64,000 nt of DNA from a virus, in IMG/VR virus record IMGVR_UViG_3300035047_000196; one strand, 5' to 3'. Below are positions 21,179-31,631 of the stretch, piece after piece (position 1 is the stretch's first letter; each line of letters opens with the position of its first letter). The translations under genes and the position numbers were made by a program. The notes under the pieces are model-generated. The model was not told the DNA's origin and made no database searches. It worked only from the letters and a program-made list of their open reading frames with translations.

Positions 21179-21450
21179 TAGGCTTCCTCCACTTCTCTTT
21201 CCATCACTTCAGTGGCTCTTGCCATAGATCCAGAAATCCCTCTTGGAATAGCTTTCAAAAAAGCAAGTTTGTCATTTGGATACAGAGCTCGACCATCGGG
21301 AAGTTGAATGCCATAGGCTTTCCAATAACGAACAAGAAGGCTAGCGGATCCATTGAAAGACATCTTGTCTCCTCTCAAAGAGACTTCTCCAATTACCTTC
21401 TGCTGCCCGTTCTTCAAGGTCTTCAATATCTGTACATATTGTTCCTTCAT
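21178..21450 (-). CDS. Candidate immunity protein for the MuF kinase
   Basis: 90 aa, ATGA-coupled directly behind the MuF-kinase gene; function inferred from position only. Confidence 0.45.
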   Translation of the reverse strand: MKEQYVQILKTLKNGQQKVIGEVSLRGDKMSFNGSASLLVRYWKAYGIQLPDGRALYPNDKLAFLKAIPRGISGSMARATEVMEREVEEA

Positions 21451-23339
21451 AAGATAGTTCCTTTCTCAAAGGACTCGACAATAACCCTGAACTCTTCGAA
21501 CACAGGTTTAATACGTTCTGGAACGGTCGAATCAAAACCAGAAGAATATAGTCTGAAAGCATCATAGCCGTCTTCGTCCTGCAACGCCCGAACCAGAAGC
21601 TGACGACGAGCTTCTAAAGTATTTTTTGTAACCTCGTTCACACCTAATTTGGACATCTCTGGACCATTGAAAAACTTCTCCACATCCAAATCTTGCAACG
21701 TCTTCAACCAGCGACTTCTCATGTACTCAAAGTCATCCGGAAGAGTGGCAAGGAAATCGCTACGCATGTGTGCTTTTATCAAGTTACTAGAAAAACAATA
21801 GCCATTATCAATCAATTTCAAAACAGACTCTTTACCCTTGGTTGAAACCATCCAATTATACGAATGTCGATCTCCGGCACCCGTCAGATAATCAAACACA
21901 AAAGTATCGGCGCCCTGTTTGGAGTCGATGAGATTATCTACAAAATCCCAAGGCAACTTGCCATTTGCAGCAGCATCTGCAGCGGGAACATAATCATCAA
22001 GATACTGCTGTATTGAAACATTGCCATAGTCTTTCAAACCTCTTCGATAAACAGTACGTGGAACTTTGTTCAGACCAATCTCTTGATCAAATAAATAAGC
22101 AGCACGCTCTCTTTGAGCCGCTGTGAACTCTGGATTCTCAAGTAAAGCGGGGTGCTTGTATTCTCCAGACTCCTTCTTGAGAACTCCTGTAACCTTCTTG
22201 TCCCCTTTTTTCAAACGAACTAATTGAGCATCATTCACACCCCCACCAAGATTAGATGATTCTGTTACAGTTCCAGTTCCAAAAGCAACCTCATCTGTAA
22301 TGGGAACAGAAGGCACAGCGTCCGGCTTTGCCGGCAGACAGACACAACGACAGTTTGGATGAACAGGAATAAGGCCGCGAGCTTCCTTCAATGAAAATAT
22401 CTGACCCTCTAACTCCATGCACTGAGAACAGACGCGGTCATCAAGAGCAGTAGCAAACTCGGCCAATACTGTAACACCCTCTGCCCCTGCCTGCTCATAA
22501 GTATTTATGGTAGCGACATGATGAGCACGTACGATTTCTGTTCTTGCAAGCGTTCTGGCCCTCTTGATCTCCAAACCAACCGCTTTGTTCATCGCACGGG
22601 CGATCTTCTTAGGATTATCACCATCAATAAGACCCTGTGAAAGAACACGGGTGATGGCGGTTTCTGTTCGACGCGTCACACTCTTGACCCCATCCCAAGT
22701 ACGAGTGTAGAGATTGGCTACAGTGTCCATATGAATAGGGGCATTAAATGGAGACTGGAATGGACCATCAGACACCTCACCTATGCCAGCGATCTCTAAT
22801 TCGGTCTCCGCTCGAATCATCCCCTTCTTATAGCTGGACTCGATATATTGATCAGTCCAGCGGACAGCACCACCAGAGGACCCTTGAACAACACCAAGAG
22901 GCGCGTCCGGCTTGGCCATCTCATCTTCCAACCATTTTTGGAAGTCCTCTATCTTCTGATCGCTTGTGGTGAAGCCGGCGAAGGCACGGGGAGGGAGAGC
23001 CTCGTTCGCTGTAAGTGTATTGGTCGAGTGTGACTCGCTCAATCCCCGTAACGCCGGCATTGGATCTCTCAACCCAAAGCAATCGTTTTCTATGACACTC
23101 TTGTTGATCAACCCTTTAATCAATCTGAAACGCTTGTACATTTCGGCGGACATTTTTCTACGTAACATAGTCGTGCGGGTTGGGTCGGCCCTTCCGGTGG
23201 TGCTCCCGTTCGTTGCCAAGGAGGAAGCGGTGAGAGAGCGAAGACCTCCCTGCCTCACGCTTTTTTGGAGCACACTGAGCCGACCCAACCCCATCCGGGT
23301 GGAGGTACATACAGCACAGGTATGTTGCACGATGGTCAT
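21447..23339 (-). CDS. MuF (SPP1 gp7-like) minor head protein fused to a PI3/4-kinase/HipA-like kinase domain
   Basis: ARTEIVRAH, CSQC, PVHPNCRC (MuF); GGGVN, VLKKE, RERAAYLFD, GAGDRHSYN, IDNG (kinase). Confidence 0.8.
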   Translation of the reverse strand: MTIVQHTCAVCTSTRMGLGRLSVLQKSVRQGGLRSLTASSLATNGSTTGRADPTRTTMLRRKMSAEMYKRFRLIKGLINKSVIENDCFGLRDPMPALRGLSESHSTNTLTANEALPPRAFAGFTTSDQKIEDFQKWLEDEMAKPDAPLGVVQGSSGGAVRWTDQYIESSYKKGMIRAETELEIAGIGEVSDGPFQSPFNAPIHMDTVANLYTRTWDGVKSVTRRTETAITRVLSQGLIDGDNPKKIARAMNKAVGLEIKRARTLARTEIVRAHHVATINTYEQAGAEGVTVLAEFATALDDRVCSQCMELEGQIFSLKEARGLIPVHPNCRCVCLPAKPDAVPSVPITDEVAFGTGTVTESSNLGGGVNDAQLVRLKKGDKKVTGVLKKESGEYKHPALLENPEFTAAQRERAAYLFDQEIGLNKVPRTVYRRGLKDYGNVSIQQYLDDYVPAADAAANGKLPWDFVDNLIDSKQGADTFVFDYLTGAGDRHSYNWMVSTKGKESVLKLIDNGYCFSSNLIKAHMRSDFLATLPDDFEYMRSRWLKTLQDLDVEKFFNGPEMSKLGVNEVTKNTLEARRQLLVRALQDEDGYDAFRLYSSGFDSTVPERIKPVFEEFRVIVESFEKGTIL

Positions 23340-26344: not shown

Positions 26345-26876
26345 GTTTCTTCTTCCCTATCTTACTCAACTTACTGATGTCAAATTCATGTGAATGGCTA
26401 TGATCCATTTTGCCAACGATAGTCTGGATGTTTTTCCAACGATCCGGATTTCGATTGCACAACCAGAAGATCATAGCGGTAACGTTTGGAGCCATGTGCT
26501 TCCTCATTGTGATGATCTTGTCTGCAGGGACTCTGACTAGATTTGCTCCTCTACCTTGGCGAAGCTCAATCTGCTCGGTCTTGGTTTCGGTGTACCAATA
26601 TCCAAGAGCGCGTTTGAGGAGTCCTTGTTCAACCCTGCCGTTGTCGAAATCTTCTCTACCGGCTTTTTTAGCTTCCAATAAATCAGGGTGTTCTTGCATC
26701 CATTTGTTTAGGGTCTGAACAGAGATATCAAGAATTTCAGCGACCTCTTCATTACCACACCCCCGCCTGTACAGCTTGCCAATCACCGATACATGATAGG
26801 CAGGATCGTACTCAATAGGAGGACGTCCCCGTCCAGCACTCATCTTGCTTTTCTTCTTTACCGTTACCTTTGCCAT
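26202..26876 (-). CDS. terS: Terminase small subunit
   Basis: GRGRPP..Y, HTH (EEVAEILDISVQTLNKW), LLKRALGY, AMIFWLCNR.PDRW; probable start 26876; overlaps terL by 143 nt. Confidence 0.85.
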   Translation of the reverse strand: MAKVTVKKKSKMSAGRGRPPIEYDPAYHVSVIGKLYRRGCGNEEVAEILDISVQTLNKWMQEHPDLLEAKKAGREDFDNGRVEQGLLKRALGYWYTETKTEQIELRQGRGANLVRVPADKIITMRKHMAPNVTAMIFWLCNRNPDRWKNIQTIVGKMDHSHSHEFDISKLSKIGKKKLEQLADMLEEAIGDEATSSPEPQNTATRDSSPVAGRLHSPLLGHGRN

Positions 26877-27071
26877 AACGCTTTGCAATATATGGACCAC
26901 AGCCAAAGAGGATAAGAAGGAATTGATATTCGATTCCAAAAAATACTGATATATGTGTGTTTTCTGCATGTAAAAAATACTTAAAAAACTTTAAGTTTTA
27001 CCTTTACCTCTACCCAGCCCGGAGGTAGTATATAAGTAGGTTCTTTGATAAATAGGAAGGCGGTTATGAGA

Positions 27072-27342
27072 CACCCTCCTCAAAACACCAGACAGGGGCA
27101 GCCTCCTGAGAGAGCCGAGACCTCCTGATCAGACCCATAGGTTGTGGTGTTAGAGATGAAGTTGAGGACGGGGTGATCGAAGTGGATTAAGAAGAGCACC
27201 AATCGAGCGTGTACTTGCCACGGAGACACTTGATAGGAACGACGGTAGACTTCATCGAAATCCTGATGGGTGGGGGTGAGCGTGTTGCTTCAATGTAACA
27301 CGCTCCTCTCATTAAAGGACAAGCTGAGTCCAAAGTCTCAGC
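27072..27342 (+). ncRNA. Candidate structured leader / ncRNA at the start of the early arm
   Basis: Nested helices 27072-83/27162-75 and 27084-90/27145-51; hairpins 27278-27305 and 27323-27342. Confidence 0.45.
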
Positions 27343-27366
27343 ACAAGCAACATAAGGAGAGAGAAG

Positions 27367-27435
27367 ATGAAAAGGCCTTTTCAAGAGGTAGAAGCTTGCT
27401 GGGAGCACACGGAAAAAGAAGAGGAGGAAGAATAA
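27367..27435 (+). CDS. 22-aa leader peptide
   Basis: MKRPFQEVEACWEHTEKEEEE* behind a strong RBS; TAATG overlap with the next gene. Confidence 0.5.
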   Translation: MKRPFQEVEACWEHTEKEEEEE

Positions 27436-27626
27436 TGTATATCGGAACAATAAGCCAAAGCGAGATAGAAAAATTGGCTAATGAAATCAAAAACGAAATC
27501 ATAGCCATGGACGGAAAGCCGAATAAGGAATGGCGGCTTAGTATCTCGGCGAATGGAAATGTCAGAGTACAGGTTGTCTTTCAAGATTTCGTAGGAATGG
27601 AAGATATCCACGAAAAGTATCTGTAG
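27435..27626 (+). CDS. Small early hypothetical protein (63 aa)
   Basis: Probable start MYIGTIS at 27435 within the listed ORF. Confidence 0.65.
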   Translation: MYIGTISQSEIEKLANEIKNEIIAMDGKPNKEWRLSISANGNVRVQVVFQDFVGMEDIHEKYL

Positions 27627-27637
27627 ACTATACTAAA

Positions 27638-27702
27638 TCGAAAGAGGAGGGCTTCACCCTCCTCTCATACTAACGTGGTGGTTAGTATCTGATGAGAAGC
27701 CA
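27638..27702 (+). ncRNA. Type II hammerhead ribozyme
   Basis: C-GAAA (27639-43); stem III 27644-51/27657-64; UC cleavage site (27665-66); stem I 27667-74/27681-88; CUGAUGA-G (27689-96); stem II only 2 bp. Confidence 0.8.
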
Positions 27703-27719
27703 ACATAAGGAGAGAGAAG

Positions 27720-28001
27720 ATGAGAATGAAGAAAACAATGAAAGAAATCAAAGAACAACTACTGAACCATAAACGTGAACTCGAATCTATACATGGACCA
27801 TTAGGACCTCCACTGAAAAGAATAGTTGCTGTTGGAAACATGGGGCCTCCTGTTTATCAATGGTGGGATGGTGGATCCAAGAGTCTGAAGCGCTTCGTTG
27901 AAAAACACCATGCAGATAAGAGCATTTCCAAAATTGTGGTTCAATACATTTACATTCCATATAGCTCCGCTCACAGCGAGGTTGTGGTCTGGGAACGATG
28001 A
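27720..28001 (+). CDS. Early hypothetical protein
   Basis: 93-aa ORF with the repeated RBS, directly behind the hammerhead. Confidence 0.7.
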   Translation: MRMKKTMKEIKEQLLNHKRELESIHGPLGPPLKRIVAVGNMGPPVYQWWDGGSKSLKRFVEKHHADKSISKIVVQYIYIPYSSAHSEVVVWER

Positions 28002-28120
28002 TTCTGCAAAACATCGGTCAACAATTCTTTTGAACTTTTTTCAACACTGCTATAGCTGAACGTTTTTTTGAAGTAAGGCTCTGAAAGTGGGATATGACGA
28101 ATTTTCAAAAACTCGATTTG

Positions 28121-28129
28121 GTATAATAG
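28121..28129 (+). promoter_or_regulatory. Candidate -10 box GTATAATAG
   Basis: TATAAT in an intergenic region, followed by a small hairpin and RBS. Confidence 0.5.
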
Positions 28130-28176
28130 TAGTAGTGAGTTGGAATTGATCCGACTACAGACAAAGGAGAGAGCAG

Positions 28177-28395
28177 ATGAAGTGGTATCGTACTGAATGG
28201 AATCAGCAGGTCAGGAAAAGAAAGGGATCTGATGCCGGCAAGATGGTGCGGGAAAGAAAGTGCTACGAAACGAAAAGTCTCACGGACTTACATGCAACCA
28301 TCCGAAGTCGGCACCCAGGAGCCAGGACACTGATGCTGGATGACAGCATCGAGTGGCCGTTCGGAACATATGCTGAAATCATAGCAAGGAGCTGA
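28177..28395 (+). CDS. Early hypothetical protein
   Basis: 72-aa ORF with AGGAGAGAG RBS. Confidence 0.7.
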   Translation: MKWYRTEWNQQVRKRKGSDAGKMVRERKCYETKSLTDLHATIRSRHPGARTLMLDDSIEWPFGTYAEIIARS

Positions 28396-28396
28396 C

Positions 28397-28807
28397 ATGG
28401 GACACTATAAAGAAGAAGAAAGAATCTGGTTTGAAGCATACAGCATCTGGATAAGTGAAGCAGAGGCAGTCCGCATAATCCAAAAGTTGGACAGATGGAC
28501 CGGCATGGAAACAACCTGCAAATTCAGAAGTAGCTTCGGTGGTGTCGCATATCCCTGGAGGAAGACGATTATGCTTCCATCCAAGACCCTGACAGTTGGA
28601 CTACTGCTACACGAGTACGCTCATATAGCTCATTACTGCCCCGATGTGTTTACCGACATACCAAGACTGACAAGGAGAGATAGAAAGGGCCGTAAAGTCA
28701 AACCACATGGTGTTGAGTTTGACACGGTCTTGATGCGCATCCACCACTACGGCAAGCGGAAGAACTATTGGAGAAAAAGAAAGGTGAGGGTACGGAAAAT
28801 AAAATGA
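28397..28807 (+). CDS. SprT-like zinc metalloprotease
   Basis: LLHEYAH (HExxH) and downstream HGVEF. Confidence 0.7.
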   Translation: MGHYKEEERIWFEAYSIWISEAEAVRIIQKLDRWTGMETTCKFRSSFGGVAYPWRKTIMLPSKTLTVGLLLHEYAHIAHYCPDVFTDIPRLTRRDRKGRKVKPHGVEFDTVLMRIHHYGKRKNYWRKRKVRVRKIK

Positions 28808-29672: not shown

Positions 29673-31631
29673 ATGAGGACAAAAGACAAAGTCGAAGAAA
29701 TCAAAAAACGAATTGATGAAGAGGATGGCTTTGCTATTGCCGCCCTGTTGGAGGTTTACTCCTATCAGACTAACGATGAGCAACAAGCCCACCACACGAT
29801 TGAACAGAACGGAAGAGGATTCAATAGTACTGATGCAGCAATCCTCAGTTCAATTGCCGAGCAGTATATAAAACGGCAAAGTGTCTCGGAACGGCAACTC
29901 GCTGTTGTTAAAAAGTGCCTGAAGAAGTACCACGGCCAGATCCCGAGCACCTTAAGTCCTGTCAACGCAACTATAGGGCGGGGCAAAAAGAAAGATGAAT
30001 CAAAACTCGGCAAGATGGCTGGTATCGTCAATGGGAAAATCAAAATCATCTTCCCTTACGATACAGAAACAGTTGCTGGAGTAAAGAACAGGATCGCAGG
30101 CCGGCGATTCAAAAAGGAAGGAAAGAAGGCATGGTGGGAAGCACCTTTGAGCGTACCCAACACAGAAGCCCTTATCGATATGGGCTTCGAAATCAAAGGC
30201 AAGCTCAAGCGCTGGTATGATGAACAGACTAGTGCACCAGATCCTGTAGATATAGATGGACTGTATGACTTCCAGAAGCTGGGCGTTGGTTTCATTGAAT
30301 CCAGGAACGGAAGAGCCTTAATAGCCGATGAGATGGGGCTAGGGAAGACCGTTCAAGCCCTTGGCTACTGTAAGACCCATCCAGAAAAAAGAACGCCGTC
30401 AGAGCCTTGTTTAGTGGTGTGTCCGGCATCGGTTAAACTGAACTGGGCGAAAGAAGCTAGAAAGTGGATTCCAGATGCCGAGGTAGAAGTTCTGAATGGA
30501 CGTACCCCATATGAAACCGAAGGATCGATCCTCGTGATTAACTACGACATCATGAGCGGATGGATTGAGAAGTTCCAAAGAATGAAAATCGGGATGGTAA
30601 TCCTGGATGAGTGTCACTACATCAAGAATGTCAAAGCAAAGCGAACGAAAGCATGTCTTACCCTATGTGAGCACTCTGACTCAGTCGTGTGCCTGTCGGG
30701 AACCCCAATAACGAACCGCCCAGTGGAATTTTATACAGCACTGCGGGCAATCGACAAAAGGGCATTCCCCTCATTCTGGCAATATGCCAAACGCTTCTGT
30801 GGAGCGACGAGAGGCAGGTTTGGGTGGGACTTCAGTGGAGCAACTCACACAGATGAACTCCACAGCCTGCTTACCAAGACGTTGATGATACGAAGACTCA
30901 AGGAAGATGTACTGACCGATCTTCCAGCAAAGCAACGATCAGTTGTACCAATGGAATTGAGTAAGCAAGGAAAAGCAACATATGAAAAAATCATGTGTGA
31001 CTTTGAGGGCTGGCTCGAGGAGCAGGGAAAGACACCGGAAGAGATTGAACGTACAGCAGCAGCAGAAGCACTGACAAAAATAGAGAAGCTGAAACAGGCT
31101 GCAGTAGAAGCAAAGATGAAATCCTGTATTGAATGGATCCAGGATGAAATCGATGCCGGCGAAAAGCTGGTAGTCTTCGCAACACATATCAAGACTCTTG
31201 ATGAACTGGAGAAAAAGTTTGAAGGAAAAACAGTTCGTCTGGATGGATCCACTGCTCAAAACAAACGGCAGGAAGTTGTGGACAAATTCCAAAACGATTC
31301 CAGCATTCGCCTCTTCCTTGGAAACGTCAAAGCAGCCGGTGTAGGAATTACGCTAACCGCAGCGAGCAATGTGGTTTTCGTAGAGCTTGGCTGGACTCCA
31401 GGAGAGCATATTCAAGCGGAAGATCGAATTCATAGAATCGGACAGGAAGCCGACAGTGTCATGGCCTACTACCTAGTAGCTGATGAAACTATCGAGGGAG
31501 ATATTGCTGAGATGCTGAATGAGAAACAAAAGGTCCTGGATTCCGTACTCGACGGAAAAGGTGGAGAGGCCAGCACTGTGTTGGTTGACTTGCTGGGATC
31601 ATTAATAAAGAAGGAGAAGGGATCAACCTGA
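29673..31631 (+). CDS. SNF2 / SMARCAL1-like helicase
   Basis: IADEMGLGKT, ILDECH, LSGTP, AGVGITLT, QAEDRIHRIGQ. Confidence 0.9.
   Translation: MRTKDKVEEIKKRIDEEDGFAIAALLEVYSYQTNDEQQAHHTIEQNGRGFNSTDAAILSSIAEQYIKRQSVSERQLAVVKKCLKKYHGQIPSTLSPVNATIGRGKKKDESKLGKMAGIVNGKIKIIFPYDTETVAGVKNRIAGRRFKKEGKKAWWEAPLSVPNTEALIDMGFEIKGKLKRWYDEQTSAPDPVDIDGLYDFQKLGVGFIESRNGRALIADEMGLGKTVQALGYCKTHPEKRTPSEPCLVVCPASVKLNWAKEARKWIPDAEVEVLNGRTPYETEGSILVINYDIMSGWIEKFQRMKIGMVILDECHYIKNVKAKRTKACLTLCEHSDSVVCLSGTPITNRPVEFYTALRAIDKRAFPSFWQYAKRFCGATRGRFGWDFSGATHTDELHSLLTKTLMIRRLKEDVLTDLPAKQRSVVPMELSKQGKATYEKIMCDFEGWLEEQGKTPEEIERTAAAEALTKIEKLKQAAVEAKMKSCIEWIQDEIDAGEKLVVFATHIKTLDELEKKFEGKTVRLDGSTAQNKRQEVVDKFQNDSSIRLFLGNVKAAGVGITLTAASNVVFVELGWTPGEHIQAEDRIHRIGQEADSVMAYYLVADETIEGDIAEMLNEKQKVLDSVLDGKGGEASTVLVDLLGSLIKKEKGST

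Follow-up and report, generated by a model that had tools for sequence, protein, structure and literature searches.

A type II hammerhead ribozyme and a candidate P5 twister placed before near-identical ribosome-binding sites in an oil-field phage

Introduction

What does a self-cleaving ribozyme do when it lies between two genes of a phage? Phages and prophages abound in type II hammerheads and twisters, whose biological role is still unproven. According to Perreault et al. (2011, PMC3088659), natural type II hammerheads are a common feature of both bacteria and prophages. In these RNAs stem II can be as short as 1-2 bp, and a pseudoknot of at least 4 bp, formed by loop I with the tail right after stem II, was found by mutagenesis to be needed for fast cleavage. 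Clustered prophage hammerheads that flank single genes cleave, and have been read as devices for processing long phage transcripts (PMC3088659). Twisters and hammerheads are known to co-locate (PMC5408937).

The locus described here belongs to a 64,000-nt stretch of viral DNA (hereafter the window), in which a first-pass annotation had recognised a hammerhead between two small genes. The analysis below adds a candidate twister upstream of it. Two ribozyme classes, set in near-identical contexts and followed by near-identical Shine-Dalgarno (SD) sequences, would thus surround a tiny coding unit, and the same placement recurs in distant relatives. The locus offers a compact test case for the question above.

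Results

Genomic setting

The window is a tailed-phage genome, from a phage of about 65 kb in an oil-field metagenome. The leftward genes, beginning at 26969, encode the small and large terminase subunits (terS, terL), the portal and a MuF-like head protein; small ORFs and then an SNF2 helicase gene (29673-31631) run rightward. Judging by this layout, the rightward (replication) operon is presumably early. The phage sequence is present in 15 runs, all of DNA, from a single oil-field metagenome series, and the other contigs with this region, up to 65.6 kb in length, are identical copies. Among the leftward genes, the C-terminal stretch of the MuF-like head protein (21447-23339, minus strand) matches the Pfam models for PI3/PI4-kinase and Fam20C kinase (E 1e-6 and 1e-4, respectively).

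The small ORFs that concern us are arranged in the order twister, SD, 22-aa ORF, 63-aa ORF, hammerhead, SD, 93-aa ORF:

27354-27359 (+): SD AAGGAG after the candidate twister, within repeat 27348-27373, which is 96% identical to 27701-27726
27367-27435 (+): 22-aa mini-ORF whose stop overlaps the next start (UAAUG)
27435-27626 (+): 63-aa ORF between the two ribozymes, called as a gene on a public contig
27707-27712 (+): SD AAGGAG of the downstream ORF, part of repeat 27701-27726
27720-28001 (+): downstream 93-aa ORF, without homologues outside this phage in protein searches

The 22-aa mini-ORF has an acidic tail (MKRPFQEVEACWEHTEKEEEEE) and sits behind a strong SD. Its UAAUG overlap with the 63-aa ORF suggests that the two are translationally coupled. 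Searched against 5.8 billion proteins, the 93-aa protein had no homologue other than itself; the INPHARED phages gave no match, and IMG/VR searches with the single proteins found nothing. A scan of 26700-28500 detected no sigma-70-like promoter. With no promoter located, the placement of both ribozymes on one transcript is an assumption in what follows.

A type II hammerhead in front of the 93-aa ORF

An Rfam covariance-model search (cmscan) matched Hammerhead_II (RF02276) at 27636-27705 (+) with 43.2 bits, above the gathering score of 37; the E value of 1.7e-5 refers to the whole 64-kb window and all 4227 Rfam families, among which this was the sole one over threshold. The match starts 9 nt past the stop that closes the 63-aa ORF, and its end precedes the SD at 27707-12 by 1 nt. 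Its parts are as follows.

27636-27705 (+): type II hammerhead, full Rfam match (RF02276)
27638-27643 (+): stem II 5' strand (U11.2 at 27638, C11.1 at 27639) and core G12 A13 A14 A15.1, as read by script
27640-27642 (+): GAA (G12-A14), located by script
27643-27665 (+): stem III hairpin of 9 bp, counting A15.1-U16.1 (A27643-U27665), with loop CUUCA (MFE fold, script)
27644-27651 and 27657-27664 (+): stem III strands GAGGAGGG / CCCUCCUC (script)
27666 (+): C17, predicted cut C27666/A27667 (Rfam alignment position and hammerhead numbering convention)
27667-27688 (+): stem I hairpin of 8 bp, loop GUGGUG, pseudoknot bases 27676-79 (MFE fold, script, pooled test)
27667-27674 and 27681-27688 (+): stem I strands AUACUAAC / GUUAGUAU (script)
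27689-27697 (+): core C3-A9 CUGAUGA (27689-95) and stem II 3' strand G10.1-A10.2 (27696-97) (Rfam alignment, script)
27699-27702 (+): 3' tail GCCA, which starts 1 nt after stem II and pairs with loop I UGGU in the pseudoknot (register, shuffle test)

The script found the invariant core complete (C3 U4 G5 A6 N7 G8 A9, G12 A13 A14, A15.1-U16.1, and an H17 that is not G), together with the 10.1-11.1 pair, G27696-C27639. The topology is also that of type II, with stem II open and stems I and III closed by loops in the Rfam alignment, the MFE fold and the script reading alike. Stems III and I make up the MFE fold of the hammerhead (-24.9 kcal/mol, z -2.5); stem II consists of 2 bp, U27638-A27697 and C27639-G27696. 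The first-pass annotation had described a type II hammerhead with every core nucleotide in place, and both this description and all of its coordinates proved correct; the ribosome-binding site that it had put about 40 nt past the cut is the SD AAGGAG at 27707-12, which begins 40 nt after the predicted cleavage position.

Could the match be a chance resemblance or an inactive relic? The element is a single copy without close relatives in which conservation could be read, the searches having returned identical copies only, and its stem II measures just 2 bp. Against these points stand an E value that already allows for the whole window and all families, the presence of all the invariant core bases, and a second ribozyme candidate adjoining the first; moreover, a stem II of 1-2 bp combined with a pseudoknot is the normal active form of type II (PMC3088659). 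This explanation is therefore scarcely credible, and 27636-27705 is almost certainly a real type II hammerhead. From the sequence, it is also likely to be active in vivo. Taken singly it is an ordinary element, a further member of a well-described family.

The pseudoknot of the hammerhead and its relatives

A pseudoknot had also been proposed for this hammerhead, and the script showed loop I UGGU (27676-79) to be complementary to GCCA (27699-702). In this register the pseudoknot covaries across the seven hammerheads of the phage group (six of which are introduced below): its summed length is 33 bp, as against 18.6 +/- 2.8 bp in shuffled tails; the 33 bp were reached by 0 of 20000 shuffled tails and by 0 of 1854 swaps of tails among the ribozymes. 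The pooled test is register-specific, with loop and stem boundaries set by hand; the pseudoknot begins 1 nt after stem II in six of the seven hammerheads. A looser control that accepted any helix within a 16-nt tail was uninformative, 18-87% of the shuffles matching. The pairing is thus borne out as a feature of the class.

A candidate twister upstream of the 22-aa ORF

The first-pass annotation had missed a second element, which lies 350 nt upstream of the hammerhead. A permissive Rfam scan of this small region returned a match to Twister-P5 (RF02684) at 27262-27340 (+). Its 31.4 bits lie 6 bits under the gathering score of that model, 37.6 (E 5e-5 over 271 nt, 2.3e-4 over 1251 nt). The Rfam scan of the whole window did not list it.

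27262-27342 (+): candidate Twister-P5 ribozyme (sub-threshold RF02684 match plus tertiary pairs)
27262-64 and 27316-18 (+): P2, CCU / AGG (model match)
27265-69 (+): L1, GAUGG (model match)
27270-27312 (+): long P1 hairpin (model match)
27313-15 (+): UAA, predicted cut U27313/A27314 (model match)
27319-20 (+): L2, AC
27323-42 (+): P4/L4

Helices P1, P2 and P4 come in the order of type P5, and an N-A cleavage dinucleotide lies between P1 and P2. The L4/L1/L2 tertiary pairing scheme of twisters, as given in PMC5408937 (reviewing Roth et al. 2014), supplies a further check, one that is independent, since the covariance model does not score the pseudoknots. Every interaction of that definition has a counterpart in the candidate. 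T1 is provided by U27267-A27332, G27268-C27331 and G27269-C27330, with A27266-A27333 as the A-A contact; T2 by A27319-U27336 and C27320-G27335; and the pairs within L4 by G27328-C27337 and U27329-A27334. Two positions in T1 and T2 are off consensus, and both are compensated. G27265, the first base of L1, and A27314 align with the conserved L1 guanine and with the adenine 3' of the scissile bond; on our reading of the numbering this G would be the catalytic guanine.

The likeness to Twister-P5 (RF02684, PMC5408937) extends to the order P2(3')-L1-P1 hairpin-UAA-P2(5')-L2-P4/L4, to an L4 of the form G-U-NNNA-A-GN-C, to a T1 of three Watson-Crick pairs plus A-A and a T2 of two pairs, and to the proximity of a hammerhead. 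The candidate differs in its P2 of 3 bp, in an unusually long P1 (7 + 9 bp, with a bulged U), and in having T1 UGG:CCA and T2 AC:GU in place of the consensus pairs GGG:CCC and GC:GC. That these departures preserve pairing, and that related phages carry other compensated T1 variants (see below), makes the candidate, as far as its sequence can tell, probably a real twister. If so, a real twister can fall under the Rfam threshold and escape a whole-window scan, yet reveal itself by the pseudoknots that the model leaves unscored.

The segment 27246-27373 was also considered as a dead copy of the hammerhead, an interpretation that was rejected when the twister model matched. In the leader preceding the twister (27040-27262), a search for a third structured RNA gave no Rfam match and a fold no better than that of shuffled sequences (z 0.19).

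Ribozymes in related phages

The SNF2 helicases closest to that of the window share no more than 50% identity with it, but their contigs have the same divergent layout. The scan for all Rfam families covered four such loci; that for the two ribozymes covered 79 IMG/VR records. Hammerhead_II was found in one of the loci (L005) and in five of the IMG/VR records (6/83), four of the six exceeding the gathering score; Twister-P5 was found in two records, with 54.3 (L090) and 46.8 bits (L091). Both ribozymes are missing from about 75 of the 83, of which many are fragments; the element is therefore dispensable for this type of phage. A Twister-P5 match in a further record (L092; 13.5 bits, E 0.03) was treated as noise.

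Where ribozymes are present, their position recurs. The SNF2 helicase gene follows 1.6-5.4 kb downstream, on the same strand, in the case of five of the six hammerheads and of both twisters. Counting that of the window, all seven hammerheads are followed by an SD-like motif 1-18 nt after the 3' end (in L093 and L089 as read by eye), and the twisters of the window and of L090 likewise end just before an SD. T1 reads UGG:CCA, GAG:CUC and GGA:UCC in the three twisters, a different pair being compensated in each; the T2 variant of the window, AC:GU, recurs in L090. These variants support the identification of the window's twister.

The L090 twister (1501-1571; IMG/VR 3300009149_004057) starts 5 nt after the upstream ORF and ends at the next SD, and that of L091 (1501-1570; IMG/VR 3300002220_000317) starts 12 nt after an ORF and has a GGAG about 15 nt past its end. 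Two of the related hammerheads, L089 (1501-1569) and L087 (1501-1573, minus strand), have the core variants UUGAUAA and CUGAAGA. The former combines C3-to-U with G8-to-A, a paired change, and has an extra U before stem II; the latter has A at position 7. Both retain 5-bp pseudoknots.

A cassette shared by the two ribozymes

The SD-ATG block at 27701-26 is repeated at 27348-73, and two more blocks are repeated in the same order. Aligned over 27240-27380 and 27623-27732, the two regions have 77 identical columns out of 110. The common blocks are TAnACTnnATCGAAA; GCTTCA...CACnCTCCTCTCAT, comprising the hairpin loop, the 3' arm and the context of the cut site; and AGCnAACATAAGGAGAGAGAAGATGA. The cassettes differ in the segments that define each ribozyme class. 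One further feature of the twister copy should be listed:

27246-27260 (+): 5' flanking block of the twister cassette, with UCGAAA; its paralogue is 27629-27643

This UCGAAA (27255-60) is hammerhead core sequence and not a twister feature, and the L090 and L091 twisters are not preceded by it. Its retention in the twister copy, though only a hammerhead needs it, hints at a duplicated cassette in which one class of ribozyme took the place of the other. In a fuller scenario, which we consider distinctly unlikely, the classes would have been exchanged at paralogous sites, stem III and P1 would be the same hairpin, and the pair might excise a possibly ligatable 353-nt mRNA.

The same flanks invite another explanation, namely that the ribozymes cleave but are mere passengers, selfish or neutral: small cassettes carried by recombination from one intergenic site to another, without benefit to gene expression. 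Their sporadic distribution (hammerheads in 6 and twisters in 2 of about 83 related records) is in keeping with this, and so are the flanks common to the two cassettes of the window (the 77/110 columns), which point to duplication of a module or recombination. The flanked and downstream genes are orphans, and flanked genes are not constant elsewhere either (PMC3088659). Against it speaks the precise placement, right after a stop and right before an SD, on the coding strand and nearly always in the same region of the operon. Moreover, no copy has lost its core nucleotides or its pseudoknot, a sign of ongoing selection. The passenger explanation seems unlikely to us.

Discussion

With the two motifs, their tertiary pairings and their recurrent placement in relatives established, the question becomes what the RNAs would do in a transcript of this operon. 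In the hammerhead, stems III and I would each form a local hairpin; stem II, with its 2 bp, would close, and pairing of loop I UGGU with tail GCCA would hold stems I and II parallel. The RNA would cut itself between C27666 and A27667, leaving an upstream RNA that is closed off by the stem III hairpin and bears a 2',3'-cyclic phosphate, and a downstream mRNA that carries a 5'-OH, opens with the stem I hairpin and has its SD 40 nt from the cut. The twister probably plays the same role 350 nt upstream, cutting at U27313/A27314 and leaving its P4 hairpin 12 nt before the near-identical SD. Both cuts together would yield a 353-nt mRNA (27314-27666) with the 22-aa and 63-aa ORFs, starting near the P4 hairpin and ending in the stem III hairpin. 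Every cistron would in this way receive a fixed, hairpin-capped 5' end, whatever lies upstream.

We regard it as probable that both ribozymes act constitutively, cutting the early polycistronic RNA just before the SDs into separate hairpin-capped mRNAs. That such processing or insulation is the function for which they were selected is a more delicate point, on which we lean only slightly towards an affirmative answer. We infer cleavage in vivo and consequent effects on mRNA stability and translation. Cistron separation is the standard reading of hammerheads in prophages (PMC3088659), and it would fit a site directly before an SD.

The hammerhead resembles other type II hammerheads (RF02276, PMC3088659) in its permutation, invariant core, very short stem II and pseudoknot of at least 4 bp, as well as in lying between genes of a phage operon with another ribozyme nearby that flanks a small gene. 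There are no structural differences. What sets it apart is that it resides on a free phage contig without close relatives, and that its partner is a twister instead of a second hammerhead.

A parallel may also be drawn with the engineered RiboJ insulators. These are said to consist of a type III hammerhead from a satellite RNA placed behind promoters (Lou and co-workers, 2012), and the self-cleaving ribozyme and a hairpin directly upstream of the SD reportedly fix the 5' end of the mRNA. The phage locus likewise has a ribozyme and a hairpin before the SD; it differs in that its ribozymes are a natural type II hammerhead and a P5 twister and that they lie between cistrons.

Alternatively, the ribozymes could be regulators whose cleavage is conditional, gated by translation of the upstream ORF or by pairing of the twister P2 strand with the SD. 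The upstream stop codon falls between -2 and +9 nt from the start of the hammerhead in 5 of 7 cases, close enough for a terminating ribosome to cover the 5' strand of the core; the AUACUAA repeat discussed next could be covered in its stead. Tight packing of phage genes explains this spacing equally well, however, and in L005 the gap is 79 nt. The first-pass annotation had further suggested that a second AUACUAA, just past the upstream stop, competes for stem I. The script confirmed this copy (27630-36), and a repeat of the 7-mer arises in 1.3% of shuffles, which makes it unlikely by chance in the window; it falls inside the 5' flank block common to both cassettes (27629-43 and 27246-60). The competition itself found no support. 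The helix 27630-36/27682-88 comes to -18.3 kcal/mol, 6.5 worse than the -24.8 with stem I, with a pair probability of 0.003 as against 0.94, and none of the six related hammerheads has an upstream copy of the stem I strand.

At the twister, before cleavage, the leader's MFE fold has UCCU 27261-64, which includes the P2 strand, paired to AGGA 27355-58 of the SD, and UUCAUC 27251-56 to GAUGAA 27366-71 at the start codon. On this model twister cleavage could free the ribosome-binding site, with the proviso that RNAfold cannot weigh the pseudoknotted, active folds. All in all, conditional cleavage appears improbable, and constitutive cleavage remains the preferred interpretation.

Constitutive cleavage at both sites would release the 27314-27666 RNA, and it is conceivable that its ends are then joined by a host ligase of the RtcB type into a circular or spliced product. 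The 5'-OH and 2',3'-cyclic phosphate are the end chemistry that RtcB joins, and two ribozymes do flank one short coding unit. Spliced or circular products were raised as a possibility in PMC3088659; they were also sought there, and none was detected. In the present case no complementarity is seen that would bring the ends of the 353-nt RNA together. We hold such joining to be very improbable.

In the 175-nt gap that follows the 93-aa ORF, the segment 28020-28130 (+) contains T-rich inverted repeats; an extended -10-like sequence, TGGTATAAT, is found at 28119-27, and a third SD block at 28158-83. From its sequence, 28020-28130 may combine a terminator with a second promoter, in which case twister, ORFs, hammerhead and 93-aa ORF would form a short unit of their own.
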